In this document: in pieces, positions 6,801 through 33,124 of the stretch
Layout of the letters: every line of letters begins with the position of its first letter
Numbering within the stretch: position 1 is the stretch's first letter
NCBI GenBank assembly: GCA_973895155.1
Contig: OZ316893.1
Coordinates: forward strand, 24,169,520 to 24,233,519
From: Marsupella aquatica
Taxonomy: Eukaryota; Plantae; Marchantiophyta
DNA: 64,000 nucleotides
Direction of reading: 5' to 3'
Notes under the pieces: generated by a model
What the model was told of the DNA's origin: nothing
What the model saw: the letters and a program-made list of their open reading frames with translations, nothing else
The model's database searches: none
Program-made: the position numbers and the translations under genes

Positions 6801-8559
6801 GTCCTGCATTGTTGCCGTTGCCGTTGTTGTTGTTGCCGATGCCGATTTCTTTTCTTTCTCCAGTAGTTTCAGCAGACTCTGCATGCCTGGTTGCTGCATC
6901 GGCAAGTCTTCCTTCCTGGGCCTAAACACCTGCTCGATCGTAGGACTAACAGGTGGTTGAGGCTTCTCAGCCAACGGCCTCGGCGTTGGAGCTTCCTCGG
7001 GTGCCCTTACCTGCAGGGGAAGTACCGGGGCAAAAGTCTGACCTCTGGCATACCGGCATAACAGCGGCATGTGATAGCCAAGCCGCGACACGCTCCCCAT
7101 GCAGATTACCTGCTGCTCCTCCTTTAAGATCTTCTTCAATTGGTTGAGGAGGTACCCGTTGTAGTCCCGGCTTGGGTCTGGCCTTTCTGCCAGATAGACC
7201 TGTGCCTTGCCGATCTCTGCCCTCGGCAAGTTACAATGCATGGTCACCCGCAAGAAGTCGATCATCTCTCCTATGTGCGGGTTGGTGCAGGTGTTCCGGA
7301 AGAAGCCATTCTTCGTTGATGGCCCGGGGAACGACCGGAACTCCTTGTCAGGCAAGGTCTTCCTGGTATCAACTTTGGTCTTATTGCCCATCGGCAAGCC
7401 AAACACTTCGGCAATCACCTTGGGAGTAAGATAGAAATCCTTCCCATATATCCTCGTGCAATTGGTCTCGGGTTCCCATGACCCCACGAATTCTAATAGG
7501 TCTGACTCCGGTACCTCCGGCTTCAGCCATGGTAATCTTACAAAGGCCTCCAAGCCGGATCCGGCCATGAAGCCTTGGTACTTCTTGGTCTGCATGGCCG
7601 TAAAGCATGCATCCTCCTCCCGTGCAAAATGTAGTTGCACCTCCACCGGTAGGGTTGCCGCCCAGCCCTTCCAGGTGTCATCCCTGGTTGGAATGGCCTT
7701 GATGGGATCGACCTCCTCCTCTTCGGCTTCTCCCTGCCTCCTGCTCTGCTGCTCGGCTGGCTTCTTTGGTGCCGCCGACCTCGTTCTTTTTGCCGGGGTG
7801 GCTTCATCGTTGACGGCTCCCTTCCTCTTCATCTCTGCTGCCGTGGAGGTTTCTCCTAGCACCGTTGCCCGGGTCCACCTTTCCGTGCTACCCTTTAATT
7901 CCCAGTGTATGTCGTTGCAGTTCTTGATGGCCTCTCAGATGCCGACGACGCTGTCTTTGCAAAACAGAAGATCGTCGAGTTGATTGGAAGTAGGCGTCCA
8001 CAGGAACTCGTCCTTGATGAGTTCGCCTCCTAAGAAAGCCGTCTTCTGCAGCTCCCACAATCGAGCGAGCTCCTGCCGTTCTCGAGCTGCCCTTTCTGAC
8101 TCCTCGTCCTCGTAAGTCTTGATGTACTCAGTTGCCCGTTCGAACAGGCATCCCCAGAAATGTGCCGCTTGATTGACGTTGCTCATACCCTCCTTAGGTT
8201 GATCGTCGGTATCTACTCTCTCCCCGAGTGCTTGCCTAAGCAGCTGACAGTAGTTGGCCTCCCGTAGTCGTCTGCCTAGTTCGTGCTCGCAAATGAGCCA
8301 CCATCTCCTGCAAGCGCTCCTTACCCCTCTCCTCTGCCGGTCCTTCTTCCCGTTGATCCTTCCTAGCCGCCGACGCTTAACGCGCCCTAACCCTAATCGG
8401 GTTTTCACCCTCAGCCTTACCTCCGGCCTCTGCCCGGGTTCCATGGTTGCCCCTAATTGTTTATATTTTCCTTGTTTTGTCACTATACTAAGGTGTTCCT
8501 AGGGTGCCTTCCTGCTTTACCCACTTAACCGGCCGAGTGATTCCTGTCTAGGCATCACA
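3873..8559 (-). repeat. 3' LTR, 4687 bp
   Basis: Direct repeat of 14784-19494 with termini TGTGGTGC...GCATCACA; adjacent to the PPT. Confidence 0.97.
4794..8483 (-). pseudogene. 3'-LTR copy of the LTR-embedded gene, with one premature stop
   Basis: Same as ORF 15705..19418 except for a few substitutions, one fewer 24-bp repeat, and CGA>TGA at 7935-7937, which splits it into the 182-aa and 1022-aa ORFs. Confidence 0.9.
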
Positions 8560-11500
8560 TAGCTCCCCACTTAATTGTGAAGCGTCCTCGCGAACAACTT
8601 CATCTTCGTCCATATAGTATTTCTTGAGGCGGTCATAATGGATGCGAACTGGATATACCTCTCCCGTAATGTTGGCCAATTGTACGGAGCCATTGGGGAA
8701 CATCATGGTTACTCTAAAGGGTCCTAACCAGCGAGTGTAAAGCTTCCCTGGAAACCTACTATACCTACTGTCATAAAGTAACACAAGATCACCGGTATGA
8801 ATACTAACTACTTTTAACCTTTTATCATACTGCTGCTTCATGATATTCTGTCTATATTCTACTCTCTCGGCTGAAATCATTCTCGCTTCCTCTAAAGCTT
8901 CTAACCTATATTCTCGCTCCTTTAGGCTCTCCTCCGCTGAGGCTCTTTCCTCAATTGTAACTTGAAATGTCGGTATCTCAAGTTGCATGGGTACCAGGGC
9001 TTCTTGTCCAAAGGTTAAGAAGAAGGGTGTATGACCGGTAGTGGATTTATAGGCCAGATTGTAAGAAAAAACAGCAGCAAACAATTTATCATCCCAATCG
9101 AGTTTGTTCTGAGCTACTGTCTTGTTCAATATCTTTCCTATGATTCCGTTTGCTCGTTCTGTCAACCCGTTTGCCTTTGGATGGTAGGGAGTAGTAGGCC
9201 TATGTTTAACTAAATACTGCTCATTTAAACGACTAATTATATCATTCAAAAAATGGGTTCCTCTATCACTAACTAATTCTAGGGGTGCTCCATACCTGGT
9301 GAAGATCTGCTCATACATGAATCTAGCCATAGTAATTGCATCATCCTTCGTTGTTGGTCTGGCCTCTACCCATTTAGTTGCATAATCCGTAGCCAGGATT
9401 ATGTACTTGTTCCGTCGAGGGTGGGTCAGTGGTTTCAGAGGTCCAATGTAATCAATACCCCACTTCTCGAATGGTGCCAGAGGTAGAATAGGGTGCAGTG
9501 GATGCCTGGTGGACGCCCTTGGTCCTCCCGCTCGTTGACAAGGATCGCATTGTTTGATAAACTGATAGACATCCTTGTGCAAGGTGGGCCACCAGTAACC
9601 GGCATTTAATATTTTCTTAGACGTGGTTACTGGGGCAAAATGTCCTCCGGCCTCCTCTCCATGCATGGCCCGTAGGACTCGTTTTACCTCTCTCTTTTCC
9701 AAACACCTTTGAATCGTGCCGTTGATTCCATGCTTGTGCAGTATGCCTTTAATGCACTGATACTGTCTGACCTTCCGCACAAAGACTGCGGCTTGCTCTC
9801 GGCTTAATCCTGGCTGTAATCTGGAAGTGCTGAGAAATTGTAAAATCTCAGGGTACCATGTACCAGCTATTTCCACAACGAATAGCTCCTCATCGGGGAA
9901 TCGATCATCGATGCAATCCGTGGCAGGTTTACCTGTGATCCTTGAAAAGAAGTCGGCATTGGCATGTAACTTTCCCGGCTTGATCCTCAGCTCATAGTCA
10001 AACTCCTGTAATAGCAAAATCCATCTTGCTACTCTGCCTGTAAGGTCCGGCTTATTGACTAGGTACTTCAAACTTTCATGATCAGTATGAAAGATTACCT
10101 TGTACCCTAGTAAATAATGCCTAAACTTTTTACAAGAATAAATGACTCCTAATGCTTCTCTTTCCGTGGTAGAGTAGTTCCGTTCGGCATCGGCAAGCTG
10201 ACGGCTTGCGAAGTATATGGGATGGTCCCTTCCTTTCTCATCCAACTGACTTAGTACTGAGCCAATACAGAAGCCCGAGACATCTACAAAAACATGAAAA
10301 TCTTTGTTCCAGTCCGGTGCTATCATGACTGGGGCCTCTACTAACATCTGCTTCAATTCTACCACCGCTGTGACTCGTTCGGGTGTGGGTTCGAAGTCTG
10401 CTCCTGCCTTGAGCATATTGGTTAATGGTAAAGCCAGCTTGGCAAAATCCTTGATGAACCGGCGATAGTAACCAATGCATCCCAAGAAGGATCTTACATC
10501 CTTTATGTTCTTAGGTTGCATGATATCTAGCCATACTGCTAGCTTACCTTTGTCAATCTCAATGCCCTTCCTTGATACCTTGTGACCTAGTAGCACCCCC
10601 TCGGTTACTGCAAAAAAACATTTATCTGGGTGTAACTTGAGACCCACCTCCCTACATCTCATGAAGGTTTTCCTGAGGTATTTAGCATGTTTCGATGCCT
10701 TCCCGAATACTGCAAAGTCATCAATGAAGATTTCCATGAACTTTCTCAAGTAATCATGAAAAATGTTCACCATTAATCGTTGGAACATAGCTGGTGCGTT
10801 GCAGAGTCCAAACGGCATACGATTGAAGACATAGATCCCCCATTCCGTGATGAAGGCCGTCTTGATTTGGTCTTCCTGTCGAATCCTGATTTGGTTATAA
10901 CCAGAGTATCCATCCATGAATGAATATAGTTCATGACTGGCTACCATGTCTAGTACCATATCAGTAAACGGTAAAGGAAAATGGTCTTTTAATGTTGCTT
11001 CATTCAGCTTCCTGTAATCCTGACAAACCCGGATCTTGGGTTTACCATCGGGTCCAGCTTTCTTGGGAACTATCACAATTGGAGACACCCAGTCTGAATG
11101 CAGGACTGGAGTGATGAATCCAGCTTCCACTAGTTTGTCGATTTCTGTTTTGACCAGCAGGGAATACTTCGGGTTCATCCTTCGAATTGGTTGTCGAAAT
11201 GATTTGGCTCCTAACATGAGATCAATTCGATGTTCCCCTAGTGTTGGATCTACTCCCTTTAGATCTTGGTGACTCCATGCAAACACATCCTGAAATTCAA
11301 TCAATAAGTCACTGATCTCTTTCTCGAGCTCAGGTGCTAGGTTTCTCCCTAAGTTCAGTTCTCTTCCCTCTCCTAAGTCGAGCTTCCGATATTGCCGTGC
11401 TTGGATCATATTAATCTGCTTCTTCAAATTCGGGTCCAGTTCGGCTTCCAGTCTCTCTAATCTCATACCTCCATAAACTGGGATCTCGGCTGGACTAGCC

Positions 11501-11814
11501 GAGTCGGTCCCTTCCTTGGTGTCCATAGATTGTCCCCTTACCGGTCTATTCAGTCTTGAATTAGTGGCCGGCTCCCCTTCCTGCCTTGGCTCTGGATCGT
11601 GTCTGTCCATCTCATCCACCTCTTGCTCCTGAGAGTTAGGCCGCTGTGCTCTCTCGGCTTCTAATAGGGCCTCAATTTGTTCTGCCCTCGTAATCGGCTT
11701 GTATGCCGATCCCTTGGTATTTAATTCCTTGCCGATGATCGATGGCGTTGTGGACCCCGTCGGCTCTGCCACAACGCCTGCAGAAAATCCACTGTCCCTG
11801 CTACTGCTCCCCAC
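8548..11814 (-). CDS. pol: Pol: reverse transcriptase, RNase H and integrase
   Basis: RT: DYRKLN, MPFGLCNAP, FIDDF. RH: DVSG, EALG, TDH, NADFFSR. INT: HHCC zinc finger, IDY/SDRG/NGLTER DDE and WLGPF. The stop codon lies 12 nt inside the 3' LTR. Confidence 0.95.
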   Translation of the reverse strand: MGSSSRDSGFSAGVVAEPTGSTTPSIIGKELNTKGSAYKPITRAEQIEALLEAERAQRPNSQEQEVDEMDRHDPEPRQEGEPATNSRLNRPVRGQSMDTKEGTDSASPAEIPVYGGMRLERLEAELDPNLKKQINMIQARQYRKLDLGEGRELNLGRNLAPELEKEISDLLIEFQDVFAWSHQDLKGVDPTLGEHRIDLMLGAKSFRQPIRRMNPKYSLLVKTEIDKLVEAGFITPVLHSDWVSPIVIVPKKAGPDGKPKIRVCQDYRKLNEATLKDHFPLPFTDMVLDMVASHELYSFMDGYSGYNQIRIRQEDQIKTAFITEWGIYVFNRMPFGLCNAPAMFQRLMVNIFHDYLRKFMEIFIDDFAVFGKASKHAKYLRKTFMRCREVGLKLHPDKCFFAVTEGVLLGHKVSRKGIEIDKGKLAVWLDIMQPKNIKDVRSFLGCIGYYRRFIKDFAKLALPLTNMLKAGADFEPTPERVTAVVELKQMLVEAPVMIAPDWNKDFHVFVDVSGFCIGSVLSQLDEKGRDHPIYFASRQLADAERNYSTTEREALGVIYSCKKFRHYLLGYKVIFHTDHESLKYLVNKPDLTGRVARWILLLQEFDYELRIKPGKLHANADFFSRITGKPATDCIDDRFPDEELFVVEIAGTWYPEILQFLSTSRLQPGLSREQAAVFVRKVRQYQCIKGILHKHGINGTIQRCLEKREVKRVLRAMHGEEAGGHFAPVTTSKKILNAGYWWPTLHKDVYQFIKQCDPCQRAGGPRASTRHPLHPILPLAPFEKWGIDYIGPLKPLTHPRRNKYIILATDYATKWVEARPTTKDDAITMARFMYEQIFTRYGAPLELVSDRGTHFLNDIISRLNEQYLVKHRPTTPYHPKANGLTERANGIIGKILNKTVAQNKLDWDDKLFAAVFSYNLAYKSTTGHTPFFLTFGQEALVPMQLEIPTFQVTIEERASAEESLKEREYRLEALEEARMISAERVEYRQNIMKQQYDKRLKVVSIHTGDLVLLYDSRYSRFPGKLYTRWLGPFRVTMMFPNGSVQLANITGEVYPVRIHYDRLKKYYMDEDEVVREDASQLSGELCDA
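8560..8573 (-). promoter_or_regulatory. Polypurine tract (PPT)
   Basis: TAAGTGGGGAGCTA immediately precedes the TG of the 3' LTR on the minus strand, inside the integrase reading frame. Confidence 0.85.
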
Positions 11815-12740
11815 TTAGCCGTTTCATCCAATTGGTCTACATCCTTAACTTCCTCCGGAATTGCAGCTAAAAAGGTGGATTCTATTGTAAAGCAGTCCTT
11901 GACCTCTTCGTCTTCTTCTTCCAAGTCACCTTCCATTGGTTCTTGCCATAATCCGCTGGGGGGTACCTCTGGTCCAAAGACACCTTCTTCGGTTAGGTTA
12001 GTGAAGCATTCTAACCAACGTACTTCATCGGCTGACTCCAGTCCACTATCGTACCCATCTACTTCCCTTATGCTTTTCCTACGGTCATCCTTAGTGTCCC
12101 AGGATACCGTGATAGAGGGGGTCCCGAAAGTGAATTGCTTTTTACCCCAATCTTCTATTACCTCGGCTAGGTACAGCCATGGCCTACCAATCAATAGCCG
12201 GAATGACGTAGGATTTACCGGCTTCATTACTACATAGTTAATGCTAAAGAAGATACCTCCTATCTCTGTCTTGATGCCGGTTAACACTCCCGTCGGAATG
12301 ACCTGATATCCATTGGCCATGTTCAACACTCTTCCAGTCATCTCCGGTGTTAGACCCCACCCTTTTGCTGTTGAATCAATCATAATACATACCCCTGATC
12401 CTCCATCGATGGGTACCCGTAGTAATAATTCTCCTTGAATCATTAATGGTAATGCTGGGGCTCCTTGATCTTCTTCTATCATTAGTACGTCGGATCTGGT
12501 TGCTACCTTGGGTAATCTCGGCTTGCCGAGAATAGCCTTCCTTAATTGCTTCCGGAAGTACGGGCTATTTTTCAATAGTTGACCTACTGTTGCCGAGACT
12601 CTAGATTCTAGTACATCTTTAGCCAGGTCATAGGGAACAATCGGCTTCTCTTCTGGTGGTGTTTCCGTCTTGGATTCGGCCAGTTTTGCCACGCTAGTCT
12701 CCACAGCTGTTGGGTCTTCCGAAGCAAACAATGCTTTTGC
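11721..12740 (-). CDS. Aspartic protease region, in frame with gag after a single TGA
   Basis: VPIDGGSG active-site motif and LLIGRPWL. Same frame as gag: GTA AAA TGA GCA AAA GCA TTG. Confidence 0.85.
   Translation of the reverse strand, partial: AKALFASEDPTAVETSVAKLAESKTETPPEEKPIVPYDLAKDVLESRVSATVGQLLKNSPYFRKQLRKAILGKPRLPKVATRSDVLMIEEDQGAPALPLMIQGELLLRVPIDGGSGVCIMIDSTAKGWGLTPEMTGRVLNMANGYQVIPTGVLTGIKTEIGGIFFSINYVVMKPVNPTSFRLLIGRPWLYLAEVIEDWGKKQFTFGTPSITVSWDTKDDRRKSIREVDGYDSGLESADEVRWLECFTNLTEEGVFGPEVPPSGLWQEPMEGDLEEEDEEVKDCFTIESTFLAAIPEEVKDVDQLDETAKWGAVAGTVDFLQALWQSRRGPQRHRSSARN
11731..11790 (-). promoter_or_regulatory. Predicted -1 ribosomal frameshift signal (slippery heptamer plus pseudoknot)
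   Basis: G GAT TTT in the protease frame (11784-11790), a 5-nt spacer, then a perfect 10-bp stem GGCGTTGTGG/CCACAACGCC. Loop GCCGA can pair with downstream TCGGC. The pol ORF is in the -1 frame and open across this site. Confidence 0.75.
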
Positions 12741-14714
12741 TCATTTTACATCCTTGGCAATGGCTTCGGTATTCTCCAGGGTTTCTAATTCTCTTAGTTG
12801 TTCCTTAACACTAGCCGTAACAGAGGGGTAGAACAACTTAGGATGATCTCGATTGAAGTTGCTATCTTGTGAAGGATTGGTTTCACTGGTGGGCTCATGG
12901 CTTACCTGTATTGCCGGAGCCCTCCCTTCTCCTTCTGTTGATGTTGACGAAGAGTCGATCCTTTCCTCCGTAACCTTCCCTTTATTTTTGGCTAGCCCAT
13001 CCCACCTTTCCTTCCTTCTGGTAGATCGAGTAGAGACCCGGTAGCAATCATGATCTAAATCCTCCTCTGAGAAGGTTGATAGGGCTTCGGCCTCATCATC
13101 AGATGGTACGAACTCTGCCTCGGCATCCTCTTGCCATCCTAGTTCGATGTGGTTGATTTGAACTCCTCCGGGGGTAGTACCTGGCGGTAAGATCTTGATC
13201 GGCAAAAGCTTATGATTTGCGGCCAGGCCTGCCAACCAAGTAGGACATTGCCCTAGCATATGACCTTCCTGTCGGCATCCCATACATAGCTGAGCTGGTT
13301 GTCCATCACCCTGTTTGCGTGCATTCGGGCATTCTCTAGCAAAATGGCCAGGTTGACCACAATTATAGCACGCCGCAAATCTTTGCACATTCGGCCTAGG
13401 AGGTACTGACGGGTTCTGAATAATCCAAGGATACATCTCTCTTGGATTGTTCCTTAACCCTGACCACAGAGATGCAGGTCTGTTGGATAGGTCTCGTGCT
13501 CCAGTCTCACTGATGCCGAAAACACTATCAGCGGCATCTCCCAAAAAGTACTCTACTTCTCCCTGACATGGTCTGATCTCGGCCACATGCCGAACATGAT
13601 TAGTATTAAGCTTAGGACAAGCATCTTTATGGTGTCCGGTTTTATAACATAAGGCACACCATACAGAGCTATCCTCCTGTACTACCTTCTTCTTTGGTTT
13701 TACCTCTGCAATGATAGCCTTAAGTTGCTCGGTAAGGGCTACGATGTTATCTGGTGGCTTAGCCTCCATCTTGACTTTCGTCTTCCCTCTCCTTCTGCCC
13801 TTCCTTTTCCTAGTTTTTTCTTCTTCAGAACTAGAAGATGACTCACTCTTGCTACTTCCACTATCCGAGCTTGACTTATCACTTCTAGACTTCTTGGAAT
13901 GTTTCTTCTTCTTATCTTTTTTCTTATGGGGTGATCTCTCCTCTGATGAGGAACTCTCAGACTTAAGCTGTTTCTTCCGGCTTGTGATATCTGCATTAAT
14001 GTATAATTGAATATCCTTAATTGCTTCGGCTAAGGTCTCCGGGTTCTCCTTCCTAATTGCAAAACTCATCTTCTGTGGCAAAGCATTCACCAACCATTGA
14101 AGTTGCATACCTTCAGATGCATTGGTCTTTGTACGTCTTACCAATTTCTGAAAGCGTTGCAAGAACTTCCTGAAGGATTTGTTCTCCTTGAACCGAAGTT
14201 GTCCCAACTTCAGCACTGCTAGTTCTGAAGTTCCAATGGGTCGAAACTCCTTAACAAAGAGTGTTTTGAAGATATCCCAGATGGCTTGATCTTCCACATC
14301 TAATGCTCTGTACCAAGGCCTAGCCTCACCCTTGAACAGGCCGGGAAGAATCTGCATCTTGATGGCCGATTCTCCATTTGCTGCAGCGGTTCCCTCGAAA
14401 TCATCCAACCATTCGTCCGGATCCTCATCTCCTCTCCCATGAAATGCCTTGTAATGTATGCGCGACCGCTGGCTCAATCTGGTTCCTGGCCTCTCGTCTG
14501 GCCGTGCCTCTGGTTCCCCCATGTCGGTTGGAGACTCACTTCTCCTTACCGACTCTTCTTCTGGTATGTCTTCTTCGACGCCACTTCCAGTTTCGGAGCT
14601 ACCAGCTCTTTCTGCCCCTCTCAGTCGCTGTGTATCATGCCACCCGGCGAGCTGCTGCAGTCGAGCTCTCTCCCGTTGAATCACTCTTTCTTCCCTCGGC
14701 GTAAGGTCAGTCAT
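12741..14714 (-). CDS. gag: Gag with three CCHC zinc knuckles
   Basis: Capsid-like DPDEWL..GEARPWY..W..FK..F..EF; knuckles CALCYKTGHHKDAC, CYNCGQPGHFAREC and CMGCRQEGHMLGQC; Ser/Lys-rich linker. Confidence 0.9.
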   Translation of the reverse strand: MTDLTPREERVIQRERARLQQLAGWHDTQRLRGAERAGSSETGSGVEEDIPEEESVRRSESPTDMGEPEARPDERPGTRLSQRSRIHYKAFHGRGDEDPDEWLDDFEGTAAANGESAIKMQILPGLFKGEARPWYRALDVEDQAIWDIFKTLFVKEFRPIGTSELAVLKLGQLRFKENKSFRKFLQRFQKLVRRTKTNASEGMQLQWLVNALPQKMSFAIRKENPETLAEAIKDIQLYINADITSRKKQLKSESSSSEERSPHKKKDKKKKHSKKSRSDKSSSDSGSSKSESSSSSEEEKTRKRKGRRRGKTKVKMEAKPPDNIVALTEQLKAIIAEVKPKKKVVQEDSSVWCALCYKTGHHKDACPKLNTNHVRHVAEIRPCQGEVEYFLGDAADSVFGISETGARDLSNRPASLWSGLRNNPREMYPWIIQNPSVPPRPNVQRFAACYNCGQPGHFARECPNARKQGDGQPAQLCMGCRQEGHMLGQCPTWLAGLAANHKLLPIKILPPGTTPGGVQINHIELGWQEDAEAEFVPSDDEAEALSTFSEEDLDHDCYRVSTRSTRRKERWDGLAKNKGKVTEERIDSSSTSTEGEGRAPAIQVSHEPTSETNPSQDSNFNRDHPKLFYPSVTASVKEQLRELETLENTEAIAKDVK

Positions 14715-14760
14715 TACCTACGCTTCCGTTCTAACTTCATATCTCACGGCTTAAGAAATG

Positions 14761-14779
14761 CCCCCTCCATCTAGCGCCA
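14761..14779 (-). promoter_or_regulatory. Primer-binding site (PBS)
   Basis: TGGCGCTAGATGGAGGGGG lies 4 nt downstream of the 5' LTR end on the minus strand. The primer RNA was not identified. Confidence 0.8.
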
Positions 14780-15704
14780 AAAATGTGGTGCGTCCCATGG
14801 CTCCCTAAACCCAAGAAACCCCCCAGCTCAAGCCGATTCCCGCAGGTTTCGTGCTTGGCGAGGCCGTTTCCGCGGCTTAGCGGCATGGGACGCTGCTAAC
14901 CTTCTACTACTACTATTAACATTTTACACACATATACTGGACAGATCCTTCATCGGGTCATGAGATATGTAGCCGGCCTAATATAGGCCTTCCCCTGTCT
15001 TCCCCTGTCTTCCCCTCCGTCTTGTTAGGTATGTTTGGATTCCGCCGCCGGAATGATCCCCAATAGGCTTGGTTAAGCCGCTAAGACCTCTCTCAGCTCG
15101 ACACATCCAACTCTCACTCCCCTGCTTACTTTCCTTCCTTCTGTTGATGTGGGCACTCTTCACACAAGTTAATGCGACACACAAATAGCAAAATGACTCA
15201 TTCTGACTGAGTCATACCATGCACTTGCCATACAAACAGTACATCTCATACACAAGTTCTGCGAACTAAGCCGTGAGGCCAACTCTATTCAGCTCTTAGG
15301 CATGAGGAAACATGAATATACACAAGGGTCATTGTATGACTAACCGAGAGCTTCTCGTACTACTTGATCCCAGCCCGGCTGGTGCAAACTAAAAACTTGC
15401 TAAAGAAGAGGCCCTGAGCTCCCCGCTGCCCAGGTACTTATCCTGGTAGTGGATCCGCCATTCTTTGCATCGTAAGCCTAATCTACTTAACAGTAATCTA
15501 CTTGCCCGAATCTACCTATGTACAGCAAGGCAGGAGCACAAGTGTTGCTCCTACCAGTGGGACCGCAATCCCACTAAGCTAAGTGTCAGGGCCGCTCCTG
15601 GTTCTAATCCTAATCCTAAACGTGGAGATCCGTGCCCGCCCTGCCCACTCACGCCTCCTCCCTCCACGTCCGCCCTCCCTAAAAGGAACGGCGCCCTTGC
15701 ACCG

Positions 15705-18700
15705 TCACGACACCGGTGGTGGATCCTCAATGGACGCCCCCAACACTTCCTCCTCAGCCACTGCCGTTGGCCCGCCTACTGACAGATTACCTGCCCTTGA
15801 CCGAGTCAACTCTCCATCGGCCTGACTGGGTCCACCTTCGGCTTCAGCCTCGACACCGGCCTCGGCAATACCCACGGCTTCGGCCTCAGCCACTCCCACG
15901 GCTTCGGCCTCAGCCACTCCCACGGCTTCGGCCTCAGCCACTCCCACGGCTTCGGCTTCAGCCACTCCCACGGCTTCGGCTTCCCCTTCCCCTAGGGTAG
16001 TTGGATCCTTAGCCGTGACCCTGTCTGGGGTCGGTGCTGGGTCTACCTCCTTGATCACCACGGCCTGTGAAGTCGTATTACTCCTTGACCCTGAAGGTTT
16101 CCGCTTCTTCTTCATTGGTGGCTCGGCAGCTGGTCCCTTCCCCTTCCCACTTACTTCCAGCACTGGTGCAGGTGGCGCGGCTTGTCCTTCGGCAATTACC
16201 ACCCCTGGTAACTGGTTTGTCCCAACAGGAGATGGACCTGCTGCAGCTAAGCATTTAAATACTGCGGCTTGTTTCTTCAGCCGCTCTGTTTGGTTGTCGG
16301 CCCGCCGCTGTAGGTTCTCCATCTTCCTCGTGATTTCCTCCAACTCCTCTTGGGTTTCATCCAGGTCCTTACGTGCCCCCTCCAGCTCGTTTTTGGCCTC
16401 CTCCTGCTCCCTGTGGGCTTCCTCCAATTCCTTCTTCAAGGTAGCCTTCTCCTCCTGGGTTGCTCTTAGCTCCTTGTCGAGCTCTGCAATGATGACAGAC
16501 TCCATCTGGTTCATCTTGGCGTAAGTCTGTTCGAGCATCTCGTCCTTCTCCCTTAGGTCGGCCTTGAAGCTGGCCGTCAGGGACGCAAGCTCCTGCTGCA
16601 GCGCCATAATCCCTTGATAGGATTTCCCTAACTCGACCTCCTTCTGCTCAAGGGCTCCGCGGATTTTCTCGAGCTCCCCTTTCAACGCCCATTCCTTTCT
16701 TTGGGTCTCCGCCATGGCCCGGCTGTTGGCTGTTATGTGGGCCTCCTCTGTATTCTTCAGCTCTTGCTTCCACTTTTCCCTTTCTTTGATCGTGTCGGCC
16801 AACTCTTCCTGCGTCTGAGTTAGTTTATCCTTGATATTCTGATTATCAGCCTGCGCGGCGTCCAACTGCCCCTGCATGATGTTCAGCTCATGTCGTTTAA
16901 TCCGCAGTTCATCTTGGGCTTTCTTGGCCGCCCTTAGATCTTCAATCTCGGCTTCCATCCTCCTAAGCCGCCGAATGACCTCGTCCTTCTTGCTTCTCTC
17001 TAAAGCCACCGCTTCTTCTAATTGGTGCTTCTCCAACTGCTCCCTATGGAAAAAGGGTCCTACCTCCAACTCCTCTCCAAAGATGCCGAGCGCAAGTTCC
17101 CCACACATCTCACCATACTCCATGGCTCTATTCTTAGCGTAGGTGGAGTAAGTAGAAGTGATCGGCATCGCCCATCGTGGCCTCTGCTCCCAAGCTGTCC
17201 TGCGGATCTCTTCAATCGTGGCTAGAGGTTTGCTTCCTTTTTCGGCTAGCCGCCTGATGTCCTCCGGCCAATCTCCTCCTGGTAAATCCTTTTCCTTAGC
17301 CAGGGCGGCCTCTTCCTCCTGCTTGATTCGCTCCTGAAATTCCTGCACCGTCTGTTTTATGCCGTCGAAGCTCGGGGGAGCAACATCTGGTGGGGGAGAC
17401 TCAGGGCTACTCTGCTGGTTGGGGTCCCCTCGCACTACCCTTGGAAGTGTGGGGACAAACCGGCCACAGGTCCTTACTCCTGGAACGTGATGGTCCGACC
17501 CATAGCCGGAATTATCATGGCTGCAGTCCTCCACTGCCTCCTCTACCTCTTGGACGTCCGGCTTCTCCCTCTCCTCTTCGTTGGTAGGAGCTTCAGGCAA
17601 TTCTGTCTCAGATTCGGAGCTTGAGGTTCCCACGTACATTCGAACACCTGGCTTGGATTCCGGCCTGATTCTCTCCTTGTCTCCAGCAAAGGGGTTTTCT
17701 CTTGTGAGCCGGTGTAGGCCTACCTCTGTAGTAGTGTCCTGCATTGTTGCCGTTGCCGTTGTTGTTGTTGCCGATGCCGATTTCTTTTCTTTCTCCAGTA
17801 GTTTCAGCAGACTCTGCATGCCTGGTTGCTGCATCGGCAAGTCTTCCTTCCTGGGCCTAAACACCTGCTCGATCGTAGGACTAACAGGTGGTTGAGGCTT
17901 CTCAGCCAACGGCCTCGGCGTTGGAGCTTCCTCGGGTGCCCTTACCTGCAGGGGAAGTACCGGGGCAAAAGTCTGACCTCTGGCATACCAGCATAACAGC
18001 GGCATGTGATAGCCAAGCCGCGACACGCTCCCCATGCCGATTACCTGCTGCTCCTCCTTTAAGATCTTCTTCAATTGGTTGAGGAGGTACCCGTTGTAGT
18101 CCCGGCTTGGGTCTGGCCTTTCTGCCAGATAGACCTGTGCCTTGCCGATCTCTGCCCTCGGCAAGTTACAATGCATGGTCACCCGCAAGAAGTCGATCAT
18201 CTCTCCTATGTGCGGGTTGGTGCAGGTGTTCCGGAAGAAGCCATTCTTCGTTGATGGCCCGGGGAACGACCGGAACTCCTTGTCAGGCAAGGTCTTCCTG
18301 GTATCAACTTTGGTCTTATTGCCCATCGGCAAGCCAAACACTTCGGCAATCACCTTGGGAGTAAGATAGAAATCCTTCCCATATATCCTCGTGCAATTGG
18401 TCTCGGGTTCCCATGACCCCACGAATTCTAATAGGTCTGACTCCGGTACCTCCGGCTTCAGCCATGGTAATCTTACAAAGGCCTCCAAGCCGGATCCGGC
18501 CATGAAGCCTTGGTACTTCTTGGTCTGCATGGCCGTAAAGCATGCATCCTCCTCCCGTGCAAAATGTAGTTGCACCTCCACCGGTAGGGTTGCCGCCCAG
18601 CCCTTCCAGGTGTCATCCCTGGTTGGAATGGCCTTGATGGGATCGACCTCCTCCTCTTCGGCTTCTCCCTGCCTCCTGCTCTGCTGCTCGGCTGGCTTCT

Positions 18701-19418
18701 TTGGTGCCGCCGACCTCGTTCTTTTTGCCGGGGTGGCTTCATCGTTGACGGCTCCCTTCCTCTTCATCTCTGCTGCCGTGGAGGTTTCTCCTAGCACCGT
18801 TGCCCGGGTCCACCTTTCCGTGCTACCCTTTAATTCCCAGTGTATGTCATTGCAGTTCTTGATGGCCTCTCGGATGCCGACGACGCTGTCTTTGCAAAAC
18901 AGAAGATCGTCGAGTTGATTGGAAGTAGGCGTCCACAGGAACTCGTCCTTGATGAGTTCGCCTCCTAAGAAAGCCGTCTTCTGCAGCTCCCACAATCGAG
19001 CGAGCTCCTGCCGTTCTCGAGCTGCCCTTTCTGACTCCTCGTCCTCGTAAGTCTTGATGTACTCAGTTGCCCGTTCGAACAGGCATCCCCAGAAATGTGC
19101 CGCTTGATTGACGTTGCTCATACCCTCCTTAGGTTGATCGTCGGTATCTACTCTCTCCCCGAGTGCTTGCCTAAGCAGCTGACAGTAGTTGGCCTCCCGT
19201 AGTCGTCTGCCTAGTTCGTGCTCGCAAATGAGCCACCATCTCCTGCAAGCGCTCCTTACCCCTCTCCTCTGCCGGTCCTTCTTCCCGTTGATCCTTCCTA
19301 GCCGCCGACGCTTAACGCGCCCTAACCCTAATCGGGTTTTCACCCTCAGCCTTACCTCCGGCCTCTGCCCGGGTTCCATGGTTGCCCCTAATTGTTTATA
19401 TTTTCCTTGTTTTGTCAC
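15705..19418 (-). CDS. Intact LTR-embedded gene: PMD/Athila-extra-ORF-like domain, acidic/Pro linker, long coiled coil, basic NLS-like patch and AEAEAVGV repeats; likely ATG at 19121 (1138 aa)
   Basis: 1237 uninterrupted codons lie wholly inside the LTR. Domain motif LLEFVGSWEPETNCTRIYGKDFYLTPKVIAEVFGLP; E/K/Q-rich heptads; KKKRK; TATAAA at 19395-19400 upstream. Confidence 0.85.
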   Translation of the reverse strand: MTKQGKYKQLGATMEPGQRPEVRLRVKTRLGLGRVKRRRLGRINGKKDRQRRGVRSACRRWWLICEHELGRRLREANYCQLLRQALGERVDTDDQPKEGMSNVNQAAHFWGCLFERATEYIKTYEDEESERAARERQELARLWELQKTAFLGGELIKDEFLWTPTSNQLDDLLFCKDSVVGIREAIKNCNDIHWELKGSTERWTRATVLGETSTAAEMKRKGAVNDEATPAKRTRSAAPKKPAEQQSRRQGEAEEEEVDPIKAIPTRDDTWKGWAATLPVEVQLHFAREEDACFTAMQTKKYQGFMAGSGLEAFVRLPWLKPEVPESDLLEFVGSWEPETNCTRIYGKDFYLTPKVIAEVFGLPMGNKTKVDTRKTLPDKEFRSFPGPSTKNGFFRNTCTNPHIGEMIDFLRVTMHCNLPRAEIGKAQVYLAERPDPSRDYNGYLLNQLKKILKEEQQVIGMGSVSRLGYHMPLLCWYARGQTFAPVLPLQVRAPEEAPTPRPLAEKPQPPVSPTIEQVFRPRKEDLPMQQPGMQSLLKLLEKEKKSASATTTTATATMQDTTTEVGLHRLTRENPFAGDKERIRPESKPGVRMYVGTSSSESETELPEAPTNEEEREKPDVQEVEEAVEDCSHDNSGYGSDHHVPGVRTCGRFVPTLPRVVRGDPNQQSSPESPPPDVAPPSFDGIKQTVQEFQERIKQEEEAALAKEKDLPGGDWPEDIRRLAEKGSKPLATIEEIRRTAWEQRPRWAMPITSTYSTYAKNRAMEYGEMCGELALGIFGEELEVGPFFHREQLEKHQLEEAVALERSKKDEVIRRLRRMEAEIEDLRAAKKAQDELRIKRHELNIMQGQLDAAQADNQNIKDKLTQTQEELADTIKEREKWKQELKNTEEAHITANSRAMAETQRKEWALKGELEKIRGALEQKEVELGKSYQGIMALQQELASLTASFKADLREKDEMLEQTYAKMNQMESVIIAELDKELRATQEEKATLKKELEEAHREQEEAKNELEGARKDLDETQEELEEITRKMENLQRRADNQTERLKKQAAVFKCLAAAGPSPVGTNQLPGVVIAEGQAAPPAPVLEVSGKGKGPAAEPPMKKKRKPSGSRSNTTSQAVVIKEVDPAPTPDRVTAKDPTTLGEGEAEAVGVAEAEAVGVAEAEAVGVAEAEAVGVAEAEAVGIAEAGVEAEAEGGPSQADGELTRSRAGNLSVGGPTAVAEEEVLGASIEDPPPVS
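15838..15982. repeat. 24-bp coding tandem repeat (GGCTTCGGCCTCAGCCACTCCCAC); the copy at ~4927-5048 has one unit fewer
   Basis: Read directly; encodes AEAEAVGV on the minus strand. Confidence 0.9.
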
Positions 19419-19499
19419 TATACTAAGGTGTTCCTAGGGTGCCTTCCTGCTTTACCCACTTAACCGGCCGAGTGATTCCTGTCTAGGCATCACAAGGAC

Positions 19500-25201: not shown

Positions 25202-25909
25202 GTGTCTAAGTGGAGCAGGTTGCGTCAACTTCTAGTTTTAGGACCGGAAAACTTCCTGTGCTCTGTTTCAAAATATACTCCTCAGCTCAAGTCGACACCC
25301 GGAATTCGTATCGGATCTCTATGTGTCGTTCCGAGGCTGCATCTTCATGATCTTATAAAATTCTGTTATGATCATTTTGATGTGATGGTCTGGTCTATTC
25401 TTGACAATAAACTGGTTTATCAGATACTTTCAGAAGTGTTGTCGAGCACCGACCTGTCACAGCTGATATATGAGTTCACGCAAGATCATTGTTGGAATCT
25501 TGGTTATGTGAAGAAAAATTATAAGACTGTTGTCTTCAAATCTATCGAGAGACTACGTGATATGTTTCAAGATTATCGACCAGAGAATATAATCCAGATT
25601 GATGCCTGTCCTTCCCATACATGCCAGACAGCTGTATGCGGATTATTGTTCGCTAAGTCGTTTCAAGGATCATTGGATGATGTCTTTTTGAGGGATGACC
25701 TCATTCCATATTTATGAAAGCTATCAAATTTAGGGCTTTGTCTTGCGTTCGCTAACAAGTTCGATTATCCCATCTGATCGATTAGAAATCTACATCGAGA
25801 TTGGGATCTGAACGAGGATATATGGGAGCATCTGTACATGCAGAGACATGTGGATCAAGTTCTTATCAAACACTTCAACAGACGTCACTTATCAATGGCC
25901 AGAGTGTAG
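25202..25909 (+). pseudogene. FCP1/NIF-like domain 2, degenerate, with in-frame stops
   Basis: LLVLGPENFL, VPRLHLHDLI, FDVMVWS, ENIIQID, DDVFLRDDLIPYL; tail HVDQVLIKHFNRR. Confidence 0.72.
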
Positions 25910-25995
25910 AGGATGTTTTCTCTGTAATATGTGACAAGACCATTTGCGTGACTACATCCATACGGGCTCATGCATCTTCTTGTGTTTCTCTACAG

Positions 25996-27225: not shown

Positions 27226-27730
27226 TTGCTCTCTGAATCTCAGTGGCTTCATCAATAGCTCAGTCTTCCTATTTCTCAAGGTGAGTTTGGGCTTAATTCC
27301 ATTGAGCGCCTTGCACCTTTAGCCTTTTTGGGCACATGGGCGGCCGCCTTCTCATTGTTGGCCAATTATTTCCTTATTGAGGATCGACCTTTTTTACTTT
27401 CATCTCTCATGGAGGTAGAGGAGGGTTCCCTCCCATTTCAGGTTCATTTGCGCGCGACATGATCATCATTACTAGATCCTGTTTGCATTGCGTTACCTTC
27501 ATTTCAGGAGTTTTTATCCTTGGACCCCATCCATCTTGAGGCAGACCTTGCTGGGCGTATGCACGCTTTCACCCTTTCCAGCATCCTCTCCGAGGCACCT
27601 GACATGGACCGAGCTCAGATTCTTTCTTCCAAAGGGAAGGGCACAAGAGGATGGCTTCAGGCCAATCCAGTCATTCCTCATCTGCGGATGTCTTTAGCGG
27701 AGTTCTCGATAGCCATGCGTCTTCGTATGG

Positions 27731-27938
27731 TGCCCTGGGCCCTCAGTCTTAACTAATACGTGGAGGACGTGCGAATGCTTGAAGGGTAGTTTTTATTCAT
27801 TTTGAACTAATAATTATAATTATTACTGGTAATAAGGGAACTTTTATTGGTAAAATGGAAATAACAAGGGGTAAACACGAAAAGGGCCCGATCACAGGGG
27901 GGTCCACTTCTTTTACATGGAGTGAGGGCCTAGGGGTA
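27731..27938. mobile_element. ~200-bp MITE in the LINE
   Basis: TIR CCCTGGGCCCTCAGTC / GAGTGAGGGCCTAGGG. Removing it with a short TSD (TGG; alternative GTATG) restores CGT ATG GGA CTG (RMGL). Confidence 0.7.
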
Positions 27939-28090
27939 TGGGACTGCCCCACCCACTTCTCTCAGGTACGGTTTACCTCCTTGTACTTGTGGGAAGCCTT
28001 GTGATACCACAGGTGTCCATCTTCTTCGGAGCAGTTTGGGAGGTGAAACCATTTTGTTCACAACGTTGTGAGAGATGCGACTGCTTAGGT

Positions 28091-31000
28091 TGTCACACCA
28101 AAAGTTGCGTCCTGAATTGGATTTTGGTTTAGGCGGCCATAAAATCTGTTAGTATTGAGGTTTGGGCAAGGAGGGGCGTGCGCACAATACTGCATTCCAC
28201 TAACTTGACACTAAATGTGCCCAACCCTATTACTACCCGTATCATAGGTATCATTTGTGTTCCGCCGCCAGAACATACCTCAAATCGATAGCTAGATCGA
28301 GCCCGGCTTAAGGACTTCTAAGCCTTTGTGCTGTCCGCCTCCGATCCATATCCGATAATACGGGCAGCTAACTTGGGCCCAAAACTGCTATCCGCAACCT
28401 ACACCCCATGCACGGCTTGTATAGCACGTTTGGTCCAGCATTCTCTATCCGCACACAAGATGTACAATTGTTAGCATTCACATCATACACGCTTGATTTA
28501 CACAAAGGAAATAGTGGAGAAAAGACTTTTACTTCAGAATCCGTTATGCACATACACATGGTTGACTCGACTTCTTTCGAATACTCAGGCCGAAGGCAAA
28601 GAGGCGTACACTACAACGGAGCCCAGCTCTGCACTTGCCCAGCGAGCTTAGTCGTACCCTCAATCCTTGGAACTTTTATTCAAGAAGGCTGAGACTCCTC
28701 GCACATCATGCGGACACCCAGTTCTGAACCTAAAATCCCCCCCCCCCCCGCTGCCTCTCCTGGGGGTTCACTAAATACTATCTAAGAACCGTGGCCAGGA
28801 GTGGGCACGTGCTCGAATTCTAACCTATGCTAGTCCTAGCTAAACGCCAGTCCGCTAAAACGGCTTGTCATTACCCTAAGATACTACGCTAAAAGGTTGT
28901 TGGCACTGCTCTAACTAGTTCCAGCGCTCGTCGGTAGTATCCTATTCCTACAGCTAAACCTACGCTACTCCAAACTATTGGCGTCGCTTAATGTCTGGCT
29001 TGCTTATTAGATCCGCCCAAGTGAGACTTGGATCGGCCGTCCCGTTGCCTCCTCAGCCGGTTGACGTCTTGCTTGAGGATTTGGACCTGGTCCATGAGAG
29101 AATCATTTTCTCTCTTCACCGCATCCGTCTCTTCCGCGGCTTCCTGGCATGCCTCTTCCAACTGCTGACCATCGCTCGTTAGCTTGGCCACCAGTCTTGT
29201 TTAGTGGCTTCTTGTTGGAGCTGTGCCACCTCCACTTTCAGGACGTCTACCTTGGCGGTATCTTGTTGGGCCCAAGCATTGGCCTCCTCTACGTCCTTCT
29301 ACCAGATTACAGCTTGTACCTTCAAACTGTCAATCTGGGTCTGGAGTTGTGAGATCTCAGCGTCCTTCTCGGCTTCGGCTTGCTCGGCCAGGTTTAACTT
29401 GGCCTTGGTATCGGTGACTTGGGCGAGGGCCGTTGCCATCTGAGGACGGAGAAGCTATAGCTCAGTATCCCGGTGTGCTGCTTTGCCTAAGAGTCTAGCG
29501 GTTTCAACCCGGTACCGCTCAATCTTTGTTGTGGCTTCAGCCTGTGTTCGTCCCGCTTTTACTGCCGCTACCAGTTCCTGGCTAAAGAAGTAGGCTACTT
29601 TGCGGCCATGAACTCCCCCATTTCCCAACGAATTTGTTGGGAGAAGTCCCCTTACTAGCAGCCTGTTCAAATATGTACCCGGTGCCAAGAGTTCCAGGTT
29701 TACTAAGTTGTGCCCGCTCGGGTTCGGGCAAGGGCAGACCTCTACTTGGGAAGAGGCCGGGGTGGTCACGTCTAGCCCGAAGGCAAGATGGCTAGCGGGG
29801 CCAAGGAATTTAGCCAAAGGGTCTACCGGTGTTGGTGTGGAGGGTACCGCGGTTCCCTGATGGCCTCGGGAACGGGGCCGGCTTCCTCTCGCTCAGCAGT
29901 CACTGCACGGTCCTGGTTTTGGCCTCCAGGGTTGCATTCACTGCCGAGTATGGCACCAGCAAAGGTGTCTCAATGGCTTGTGGTGGGGCCGGGGTGTGCG
30001 CTACTGGTGCTGGAGCCCGAGATTTGGGCTGTGGCCGTCGTTCCAGCGCCGGAAAGACCCATTGGAATGGGGTGAGCTTGGGCTCGTTGAGCCGCGGAAG
30101 GGTTTGTCGATCAAAGCGGGTGTACCATTTGATAATAATCTCAATGTGGCTTACGAGGTATGTCTTTCCCCCGAGGTACAGGGTCTTCCTTTGGTACTCC
30201 ATCTCTTCGTGGAACTTCTTGACAAAGAAGGAGGCCCACTTTCTAGGCCAATAGTTCTCAACCTGGATTACCTGGGCTGCGGATATCTCTCCCCGCGGCA
30301 TCATGTGGAGGGCGTACCGTTGGAACTCCAGCCGCTCTGCAATCTCCGGGATGAGGCACGTCCTCATCAGGAAGCCGTTGTCCACCAAACCCTTGGGTGG
30401 GAAGCTTGAAGATTGGTACTTTGCTCCCTTTCCCCCTAGGGCCCGTGACTCCACCCGGTTCTGACCCTCGGGTAGGCCAAAAATGAGCATAAGCTGCTCC
30501 TCATTTAAAGACATTACCCTTCCGTGTGCACAGGTCTAAACTCCGTCATGTCTTGCCCGTAGTACTTGCAAGTGTTCCAAGGGAGGGTGGCAATATGTTT
30601 GAACCCTTGGGTCTTCAGGTACGCTACATGCTTCGGATGGAGGATGTTCTTGTGAACATTCTCCCCCATGCGATGCATTGTTAACTTGGCCACGGCAACG
30701 GTGGCCACGGGTAAACCGGATACTGCAGCCGGCTCCTTCCTCTTCTGTCCCCAAGAGTTTTTCCCAGGATGGCTTGTAGAAGGAGACATCTCCCCGTCCT
30801 CCCTATCTGGTAGGGGTAGCACGACTGCAATCAGAACGGGTGTCGGGGCCGCCACGATCACCGTGTTGTCTATTGGGGCCATCTCTCGGGTTTGGGTTTG
30901 TGTGGACGGCGATGTATTACCCGGCCTGTGTCAATGTGCCCCCGGAGGTCTCCAAACAAGAGGAGGATGAGCCTCCTTGTCCTCTGAGCTGAGGTTCGCC

Positions 31001-32057
31001 GCATTCACCACGGATTGTACCCAAACGGGTGCGGGAACGGGTGGTGCTGCCGATGGTGGAGAGCGGCTTGAATGAGGCCAAGGCGATGTCTGTGATGGCG
31101 CCAATGATTTGGCTATGGGTGTAGCTGGAGGCAGAGCCATAGGATTCAGAAGGTTGGAGGGGAAACTGAGTGAGGCTAGGAGTGACGTCTTGCAAAATTT
31201 GGACTACCGAATCGACAGTTAATGAAGGACTGAACCTTGACTGAACCAACTGATTCCGCTGCAAGTCTATCGTGCCCGGGATCGTGAAGACCTTGTCCGG
31301 AAGTCGAAGGAGCGCTTCCCTGAATTTGAGGTACTTTGTACCATCAAAGAAGAATTCAGCAATCTCGTCGTCTCGATAGAACTTGCTCTGAAACGGGAGG
31401 TTGAAGTTGCCATTGTAGTGAGAGCGCCCGGCTAGACAAATGAGTCGTTCGTAATGTCTTTTGGCTTCGTACCTGCACGGGTTGAATTTGGCAAGCGACT
31501 TTGCTAGATGATTTCCAATGGATAGAAATTGAAGCCAAAAGCGAGGGCCAAACTGGACATAATCATGATAGACACATAGTGTGCAACGGTGAATAACTAC
31601 TTAAGGGGCGAATGGGCGAGCTGGGATCAAAGCTGGCATGAGGAGTGAACTTCTGATACTACACAAGAGAATGGCTTGCCTTTTATACCCTGACGAGTCA
31701 TCGGCCGATCGGCCCTTCCTCCTTTCTGATAGGCCGAGCCTTTCACGCATGTAGTGTACCGGCCACTCTGCAAGTCCAAATCAGGGCGTGTCAAGGAGCC
31801 GCCCCCTCGATCCGTTATACGGACCCGAGGTAGACGTATGTTTATAACGCGCTCGTAACCCAGCCGTACGGGTGGCGCTCCGCCGTCAGCCCGAGCATGA
31901 ATGCTCTTATTGACTAATGTTGTCTTATTCATGATTACTAGAACTACTTTAGTGTCGTTATGCTAATAATTACGGACTACTAATTAAGTCCGTAGTGTGC
32001 GTACTCAGCACGAATTAAGCCGGATTACTCATTACCATCCGTGCTGGCGGCGTCACA
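28091..32057 (-). mobile_element. Solo LTR (3967 bp) of a diverged gene-bearing-LTR family
   Basis: TGTCACACC...GGCGTCACA inverted ends; TSD TAGGT/CAGGT (one C>T). The LINE frame rejoins on removal. No gag or pol inside. Confidence 0.82.
28988..31560 (-). pseudogene. Frameshifted homolog of the LTR-embedded gene
   Basis: TLPW..DMTEF, IFGLP, NGFLMRTCLIPEIAERLEFQRYALHMMPRGEISAAQV align with RLPW..DLLEF, VFGLP, NGFFRNTCTNPHIGEMIDFLRVTMHCNLPRAEIGKAQV. Followed by a Pro-rich linker and coiled coil. Confidence 0.82.
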
Positions 32058-33124
32058 CAGGTTCTCTCGGACTCTTTGGTATGCGTGCAACGGGAGGTGG
32101 TACTCGAGTTACCTGGTCCTCCATCATAGCGGTTACGGGTAGATCTGACCTTGGTCCGTGAGGGTCAACGTACTTTGGCAGACATGGTGGTGGCAAACCC
32201 ATTACGCCAAGACATCATTGGGACAGCGGCAACAATGGCAGGGGCAGCAGCGTCACGTGCGGCAACAACAAAGGAGGCCAAATATGTTGCATGAGCTTCA
32301 TCTGATAGCCTCCTCCCCCTTGCTCTTGAGATATTCGGGCGTCTTCATCACCAGTTTGACGGGCTTCTTCGACAAGCTGCCCGGGATGTTCATGGTCGGA
32401 AGGGTCCCACCGGGCCCCCGCTATCTATTTTGACCACGCACTTTTGCCAACGCATTTCAGTCACCTTAAAGCGTGCTCAAGCTTGGGCCATCTATCGTTG
32501 ATCTCCTATAGTGGGTGCTAGTGTGCCCCCGCAACGGCTCACTCCCCTAGAGGACGTTCCAATCCCACTTGCCAATTTAGTTTCGACACTTGATGTGAAC
32601 CATTAGCTTTTTGCCACATTTGCTAGGAATGACGAGGACCTCGGTCCGTTTGGGTTAGTTTTAGTTCCTCTTTCTTGGTTTTTACGGGTTCCCTAGTACT
32701 CACTTCTTAGTTTTAGTTCCTCTTTCTTGGTTTTTAGGGTTCTCTATTGCTCAATTCTTAGTTGTAGTTTCTCTTCCTTGGTTCTTAGGGGTTCACTTCT
32801 TTTACATTTGGTTTTGTTCACTTGGACACTCTTTTGTTTGTTCTTATGTACTTTGTTTGATCCTTTTCTCTAAAAAGTTTGTATATTTTCTTTACATTTA
32901 TTATATGGAACGAGGTTAAAATTAGGCACCTACTCTGTCCATCAGTAATTGTAGCTTTTCCGGTCAAGAGTAACATGCACATTCCATTTCATTCATTCCA
33001 TATAGAAAGTATGGAAGACTCGAACACTTTGCAATCACAAGTCGTGTGCATTTCGATTCTACTTTGCCCCCTTATGCTGCAAAACCTCACAAATCTCATT
33101 TTCACTAAGGGCTTGTGGACGGCA

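Follow-up and report, generated by a model that had tools for sequence, protein, structure and literature searches.

Extra open reading frames (ORFs) are common in plant long terminal repeat (LTR) retrotransposons, and what they do is still an open question (PMC7264820, PMC4408406); a 2026 paper likewise treats as open whether retrotransposon ORFs shape the methylation of their own element (PMC12844716). In Tat lineages IV (Ogre) and V, ORFs combining a PMD domain with a coiled coil occupy internal positions, while moss and lycophyte Tat elements are described as having no extra ORF and the first is dated to gymnosperms (PMC4408406). According to REXdb, extra-ORF domains are mainly PMD, Transposase_28 and Athila ORF-1, and LTRs reach ~5 kb (PMC6317226); a review of additional ORFs covers, in the sections consulted, internal positions only (PMC7264820). 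PMD and the DUF1985 domain of VANC share a fold, and PMD proteins counter Polycomb silencing at DNA motifs (bioRxiv 10.1101/2024.09.27.615353); VANC and the Athila domain have been modelled as coiled-coil oligomers (PMC13547354), and VANC targets are dense motif arrays (PMC5735166). Here we analyse a 64,000-nucleotide stretch of the liverwort Marsupella aquatica (contig OZ316893.1, positions 24,169,520 to 24,233,519; hereafter the window, numbered from its first base), in which an intact minus-strand Ty3/gypsy element occupies 3873-19494 and a shorter unit at 28091-32057 carries a broken homologue of the accessory gene that lies in the LTRs of the intact element.

Our preferred reading, to which we assign a probability of about one half, is that a sister family left the unit behind as a solo LTR, with an LTR-embedded gene whose product, of PMD/VANC fold plus coiled coil, would oppose silencing of its own element. 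The anatomy is directly visible: in one family the whole gene is contained in the LTR, and the second unit holds a homologue with the same layout. According to the preferred reading, LTR-LTR recombination would have deleted gag-pol, with a single LTR remaining between the copies of a duplicated target site. The gene would sit in the unique 3' (U3) region under a TATA promoter of its own, and may have entered the LTR when plus-strand priming shifted upstream to the end of pol, as the 12-nt run of the intact pol into the LTR suggests. By analogy with described systems, the protein, whose domain is predicted to take the PMD/VANC fold, would bind the non-coding LTR DNA of its own element sequence-specifically, oligomerise via its coiled coil, and provide an anti-silencing or trans-activating function that keeps the element transcribed. 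The gene copy in the unit is now a pseudogene.

The intact element is bounded by a perfect AGGAC target duplication. Its two LTRs are 0.3% apart, with 14 substitutions over 4687 aligned bases plus a difference of one 24-bp repeat unit, and the element is young. The gag and protease regions are split by a single stop, and pol begins in another frame. The order gag, protease, reverse transcriptase, RNase H, integrase, with no chromodomain, places the element in the Ty3/gypsy OTA superclade, and no second RNase H family was found in pol or the protease region. We take its reverse transcriptase, integrase C-terminus and motifs to be Athila-like, and the primer-binding-site-like sequence presumably matches tRNA-Asn. 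Because liverworts have Tat elements lacking an additional RNase H (Tat Z1/Z2; PMC13468544, PMC10508981), both assignments are possible, and the element may be Athila or Tat Z. Since pol ends inside the 3' LTR, there is no 3' internal region. A purine tract lies within the last pol codons (8548-8572). At the U3 start of the unit the first three residues are again CDA, with a stop after ten, as if its pol had also entered the LTR.

Compared with Tat IV and V, the setting is alike in being a non-chromovirus Ty3/gypsy element whose extra ORF joins a PMD-like globular domain to a C-terminal coiled coil, and very long LTRs occur in both. However, the Tat ORF is internal, either 5' sense or 3' antisense, whereas here it lies wholly in the LTR in sense orientation, is present twice per element and persists in solo LTRs; the additional RNase H and a Pfam PMD match are also lacking here. 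The rice elements Retrosat2, RIRE3 and RIRE8 similarly have LTRs of more than 3 kb, many solo LTRs and an extra ORF, ORF0, yet ORF0 lies upstream of gag-pol, was searched for apart from the LTR and belongs to a different lineage (PMC3485330). A literature search by strict phrase matching, with subscription papers outside it, found no description of a plant LTR containing a PMD/VANC-like gene, although REXdb tables may list such long-LTR elements; PMC11963269, PMC11728184, PMC12885004 and PMC12859917 offered nothing further for comparison. Outside plants, MMTV sag, HIV nef and foamy virus tas/bel are accessory ORFs that lie in or reach U3 and have their own promoter. These differ in belonging to vertebrate retroviruses, in encoding unrelated proteins and in having far shorter LTR ORFs.

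The initial annotation, made from the sequence alone, had proposed that the frameshifted minus-strand ORF of the unit is homologous to the intact LTR gene, and this is confirmed: the segment 29903-30535 aligns with the intact LTR ORF at a BLASTP E value of 5e-14 (29% over 186 columns), a score reached by 0 of 1000 shuffles, so that the protein alignment is significant. A profile of 19 relatives, built without the window rows, recovers the main unit piece at E 1.2e-27. The LPW..D..EF motif that the annotation counted as shared is not significant pairwise (55 of 1000 shuffles), but its piece is found by the same profile at E 1.7e-7. The gene is laid out in the unit as an N-terminal domain, a linker, the PMD/VANC-like domain, a Pro-rich linker and a probable coiled coil. 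The Pro-rich linker proposed earlier can be seen directly, and the proposed coiled coil is less secure: it aligns weakly with that of the intact ORF (3 of 300 shuffles), and a heptad test on six windows of the unit is not significant (18-127 of 300). The intact ORF has a coiled-coil region of 260 residues and shows clear heptads in two of seven windows. For the N-terminal domain the picture is mixed. Unit and intact ORF do not align significantly (392-1881 of 2000 shuffles), and against a Calypogeia relative the unit scores 1 of 1000 and the intact ORF 51 of 1000 shuffles; the domain may also be shared between the copies. One relative (P0028, 787 aa) has the full architecture, from N-terminal domain and linker through globular domain and Pro-rich linker to coiled coil, and its N-terminus looks like that of the unit by eye.

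The fold of the domain was examined by embedding and structure comparison. In the ESM Atlas, the intact domain falls nearest to unnamed Streptophyta clusters (0.91-0.92), followed by clusters of DUF1985 (0.89, 82% of members) and PMD (0.88, 14%), whereas the piece from the unit falls near Transposase_32 (0.83, 27%) and ATHILA (0.82, 17%); with all named families below 0.9, these scores are leads only. An AlphaFold model of the intact domain with a 22-row alignment reached a predicted local distance difference test (pLDDT) score of 83.4 and a predicted template modelling (pTM) score of 0.81, compared with a pLDDT of 32.7 for a single-sequence model. A PDB search by sequence gave no match, and among viral structure models the best (E 0.013) is unnamed, with a template modelling score of 0.34. 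In a structural scan of 48,161 PDB chains, a single chain had Z of at least 2, namely 9LNK_A, VANC21 with its target DNA (Z 7.7, root mean square deviation 4.3, 203 of 217 residues). The match carries weight because it stands alone, spans the whole domain and names a family that the Atlas had already suggested. Modelling thus predicts that the domain shares the PMD/VANC fold, without being a member of VANC or of a Pfam family. VANC21 (DUF1985) resembles the LTR protein in predicted fold over the whole domain and in joining a globular domain to a coiled coil (PMC13547354), and also in having variable regions with tandem peptide repeats, here six 8-residue units in the intact ORF. It differs in being encoded by VANDAL21, a Mutator-like DNA transposon, rather than by a Ty3/gypsy LTR, and in its target-motif array, the like of which was not found here. 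VANC is described as dicot-specific, whereas the named relatives here are from a liverwort.

Several points weigh against the preferred reading. Pfam gave no PMD, DUF1985, ATHILA or Transposase_32 match, either in the window pieces or in any of the 19 relatives. The Z of 7.7 lies below the caution line of 8 of the tool and the identity is 8%, a middling score; Foldseek returned no PDB match at E 0.001, with 9LNK absent among the matches listed. In the intact copy, the domain carries almost no net charge (26 K+R, 24 D+E). Unlike VANC targets, the non-coding LTR parts contain no dense array of 7-8-base motifs: in one copy per family, no 7- or 8-mer exceeded shuffles in five regions, and one 6-mer reached 10 of 300 among 15 tests. 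For the unit, no copy beside gag-pol and no clear primer-binding site were found among loose contig ends, and the gene may lie in U5, like a 5' extra ORF, instead of U3. A shared fold shows no function.

The same anatomy and fold could serve another step, such as tethering of the integration complex to chromatin, nuclear import, or scaffolding of RNA or particles via the coiled coil. We regard this as a possible, if rather doubtful, alternative. It would fit the lack of VANC-type motif arrays in the LTRs and the length of the coiled-coil region in the intact ORF; Tat PMD plus coiled-coil ORFs are moreover described without demonstrated function (PMC4408406), and roles like those of retroviral accessory proteins have been proposed for extra ORFs (PMC7264820). 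However, the one structure matched is that of a DNA-bound anti-silencing factor, PMD proteins of the cell likewise counter silencing at DNA motifs, and a promoter of its own inside the LTR would suit a regulator better than a particle component. The preferred reading also agrees with two basic clusters that follow the likely start of the intact ORF.

Whether the preferred reading extends to a second family depends on the nature of the unit. Its description as a 3967-bp TG..CA unit without gag or pol holds up, the latter by both tblastn and Pfam. It is a clean insertion into a long interspersed nuclear element (LINE) of the restriction-like-endonuclease type, both flanks being derived from one high-copy non-LTR retrotransposon. 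We assume the endonuclease identity and an R2/CRE-like family resemblance from motifs, and Pfam gave no match for the right part of the LINE. In contigs from public runs, unit-free LINE copies, which are other copies of the LINE and not necessarily the empty allele of this site, connect the two flanks through a single CAGGT, and the frame of the LINE is unbroken once the unit and one duplication copy are set aside. The insertion thus made a 5-bp duplication with one later transition. The length given in the initial annotation stands, and the perfect match it implied does not (TAGGT and CAGGT agree at 4 of 5 bases). Contigs that cease to match exactly at 28091, the end covered by this test, numbered 5, 9, 4 and 4 in four runs, out of 52, 87, 41 and 74 placed on 28068-28230; beyond that point their flanks are mixed, with an agreement of 0.44-0.80 in all four runs, indicating dispersed copies that end alike in different surroundings. 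The four runs represent at most four samples from two studies, and one run is perhaps the source of the window itself. The unit lacks terminal direct repeats and long internal direct repeats, and inverted similarity between its ends is limited to 7 of 9 bases. Short internal LTRs, as in a terminal-repeat retrotransposon in miniature (TRIM) or a large retrotransposon derivative (LARD), are likewise absent, and with no gag-pol both identities are excluded.

Comparison with the proven LTR argues for an LTR. The U3 termini agree at a level expected by chance with a probability of ~0.001, whereas the other two ends agree at only 4 of 9 positions. The motif that the annotation had placed near the LTR end is real and forms part of a 29-nt match, equalled in 1 of 1000 shuffles of the terminal 400 bp and 6 of 1000 of the terminal 1 kb, at 155-270 bp from the non-U3 LTR end. 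The non-coding tail of ~0.9 kb is also as described. No other DNA similarity between unit and intact LTR was detected (blastn word 7, best E 0.19), in agreement with the earlier impression of no extended nucleotide identity. The common TATA layout stands in part: TATAAAA is present in the unit, but the intact LTR has TATAAAC, and the boxes lie 371 and 95 nt, respectively, from the LTR start. Given the common U3 terminus, 29-nt motif, tail, gene and orientation, the unit is very probably a solo LTR of a sister Ty3/gypsy family, a claim of the annotation that its ends, duplication and dispersed copies also support well.

Alternatively, the unit could be a whole non-autonomous or integrase-type DNA element that picked up the accessory gene, in which case the gene-in-LTR arrangement would be confined to one family; we consider this unlikely. 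TG..CA ends and a 5-bp duplication would suit such an element too, and neither a paired copy or primer-binding site among the contig ends nor long DNA similarity to the intact LTR was found. Among the loose ends at 28091, one contig has TGG one base past the end, which is within chance, and the mixed-flank consensus was unreadable. An inner inverted match would also fit: the first 17 nt of the unit U3 (32041-32057) are complementary at 14 of 17 positions to 28258-28274 in the motif (1 of 1000 shuffles). Yet the terminal inverted repeat is limited to 7 of 9 bases and internal LTRs are lacking; the unit agrees with a proven LTR in U3 terminus, tail length, motif position and gene orientation, and its copies break off at 28091 instead of at the inner repeat.

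Further observations concern the termini and tails. The best inverted pairing in the intact LTR is only 11 of 17, and the pairing in the unit could be a long-range RNA interaction. A hairpin around the common motif is no better than shuffles (z -1.07 and -0.48), and there was no Rfam match and no tRNA. The word TTAG, which is telobox-like, shows a strand-biased excess in both tails (14 against 6.2 expected in 28091-28987, 15 against 5.9 in 14784-15704), although the word was chosen after inspection and the excess is a lead only. A stretch of purines that closes with 13 G on the minus strand (28735-28760), ~650 nt from the unit end, might be the relic polypurine tract of an older, shorter LTR.

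The accessory gene itself is old and diverse, as judged from its relatives. A phmmer search over 1.84 billion representatives gave 22 hits, comprising 19 family members and three chance matches to repeat proteins with unrelated Pfam domains (P0005, P0018 and P0020), which were dropped. Three of ten relatives looked up have names, all from the leafy liverwort Calypogeia fissa, whose proteins include CAM6082161.1, CAM6090539.1 and CAM6122807.1. Word-indexed protein searches yielded 640, 198 and 2513 candidates, none significant; locus searches of viral and metagenome contigs gave no matches, and an exact look-up found three window proteins absent from the database. No RNA data set was listed as a match, a negative that has no bearing on expression. 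In a midpoint-rooted tree of 15 of 22 rows (seven short rows left out), the two window copies are separated by the deepest split (support 91/88, not starred), which is what argues for an old and diverse gene; Calypogeia rows also occur on both sides, one on a long branch. In all four runs, summed contig depth over four domain bins was 18-40 times that of five adjacent linker bins (contigs placed at 85% or more; depth does not measure copy number), which would fit a domain that is what related repeats have conserved.

The proposal that the gene-in-LTR architecture is an old lineage trait is plausible and partly supported: the gene is old, and the LTR position is seen in one family and would follow for the second from the solo-LTR assignment, but two separate captures of the gene into LTRs may have occurred. 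The further proposal that solo LTRs spread the gene is not supported, since solo LTRs are recombination leftovers that do not move and the unit copy is dead and decaying. Other copies carry insertions or deletions relative to the unit near some of its frame breaks. Of 34 difference rows inside the unit, 22 have T/A in the window against C/G in the others and 6 the reverse (a tally from 40 of 994 rows listed), which is a methylation-decay pattern. What does hold is that each solo LTR retains the whole promoter-plus-ORF cassette, whereas an internal extra ORF would be lost.

The gene might instead be a passenger, a captured host or transposon fragment riding in the LTR without function, which we think improbable. 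The unit copy is dead, the 3' copy of the intact element is stopped, and six of the nine other coding differences between the two LTR copies change a residue, yet any copy would be expected to decay in this way after insertion, the 5' copy has an open frame throughout, and the domain is kept at the protein level across 19 relatives where DNA similarity is gone. Least probable is an envelope-like membrane protein in the position of retroviral env, as post-pol position and coiled coil recall env-like ORFs (PMC7264820, PMC4408406), but the intact ORF has no 19-residue hydrophobic stretch above 1.11 and no membrane helix, and the fold match is to a nuclear DNA-binding protein. The Athila env-like ORF (PF03078) and Transposase_32 (PF20167) are comparable in being sense ORFs after pol and are the nearest named Atlas clusters of the unit piece (0.82-0.83); they differ from the gene described here, which is inside the LTR and has neither a membrane helix nor a Pfam match.

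Table 1. Coordinates of the unit, its host LINE and the intact neighbouring element in the window.
Feature	Positions	Strand	Remarks
Probable solo LTR, second Ty3/gypsy family	28091..32057	-	3967 bp, TG..CA; U3 end at 32057
Target-site duplication, left copy TAGGT	28086..28090	+	4/5 match to right copy
Target-site duplication, right copy CAGGT	32058..32062	+	form found in uninterrupted LINE copies
Host LINE, left part	27230..28085	+	C-terminal region of high-copy non-LTR retrotransposon
Host LINE, right part	32063..32600	+	motifs taken as restriction-like endonuclease (RVDL..DMVVANP..KE..Y); in frame with left part
U3 terminus	32049..32057	-	8/9 identical to U3 terminus of LTRs of intact element
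29-nt motif, candidate cis element	28245..28273	-	common with intact LTR (15026-15053)
Non-coding tail	28091..28987	-	897 bp; intact LTR counterpart 921 bp
TATAAAA, candidate promoter of LTR gene	31681..31687	-	~120 nt ahead of first ATGs (31566, 31560); putative function
Broken accessory gene, ~860 codons	28988..31566	-	at least five frame changes, two in-frame stops
Conserved globular domain, two frames	30107..30690	-	homologue of residues ~285-495 of intact LTR ORF
Glu/Lys/Gln/Ala/Leu-rich helical stretch, probable coiled coil, two frames	28990..29575	-	
5' LTR, intact element	14784..19494	-	4711 bp
3' LTR, intact element	3873..8559	-	4687 bp; its ORF copy has stop at codon 188
gag	12741..14717	-	
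Protease region	11721..12740	-	
Reverse transcriptase-RNase H-integrase	8548..11814	-	pol stop 12 nt inside 3' LTR
Primer-binding-site-like sequence	14762..14779	-	starts TGG, four bases after 5' LTR
Open 1,242-codon frame wholly in 5' LTR	15705..19433	-	no transmembrane-like stretch; basic clusters at residues 237, 1108

The surroundings of the two elements hold other repeats and genes. The host LINE is very high-copy; its segment 27230-27730 seems partly repeated, and it has a tandemly repeated tail at ~32650-32800. Restriction-like-endonuclease non-LTR retrotransposons are unusual in seed plants. A cytochrome P450 gene (32861-35534) begins ~800 bp to the right of the unit. The intact element sits in a gene cluster (729-3988 and 20016-26724) with a Ulp1 peptidase C48 piece (23277-23834), a Glu/Ala-rich repeat (21945-22529), three NIF-phosphatase-like ORFs in tandem (24438-26724) and an ORF whose Cys/His motif we take to be SWIM-like; the cluster is possibly a large DNA transposon with cargo. 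Farther to the right lies a PHD-MBD-FYR-DDT gene (55126-60762), presumably MBD9-like; this gene and the cytochrome P450 gene are both in keeping with a land plant. The segments 45380-46174 and 51465-52027 hold a 197-bp inverted repeat pair (90%), like a hairpin or a miniature inverted-repeat transposable element (MITE), and a degenerate tandem array of ~75-bp units.

Collectively, the structural prediction would link a previously unnamed family to the only solved transposon anti-silencing factor. A promoter, a gene and its probable target would be gathered in one compact LTR cassette, of which a nearly intact, young copy exists, and the second family indicates that the layout is not a one-off. 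The liverwort relatives would, if they reside on elements, extend accessory proteins of the PMD-coiled-coil type past the seed-plant range of Tat. A bolder extension, which we put forward tentatively and regard as doubtful, is that an old non-seed-plant Ty3/gypsy lineage built a VANC-type anti-silencing gene into its LTR, so that a fresh solo LTR lifts silencing of the family in trans. If so, every element would carry two copies of the gene, a fresh solo LTR would be a stand-alone cassette, and the PMD/VANC fold would be an anti-silencing module that transposons carried long before eudicot VANC and that has been missed because the search for extra ORFs was confined to the region between LTRs. 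Recombination, which normally disarms an element, would then leave its regulator in place, and solo LTRs would have to be read differently.

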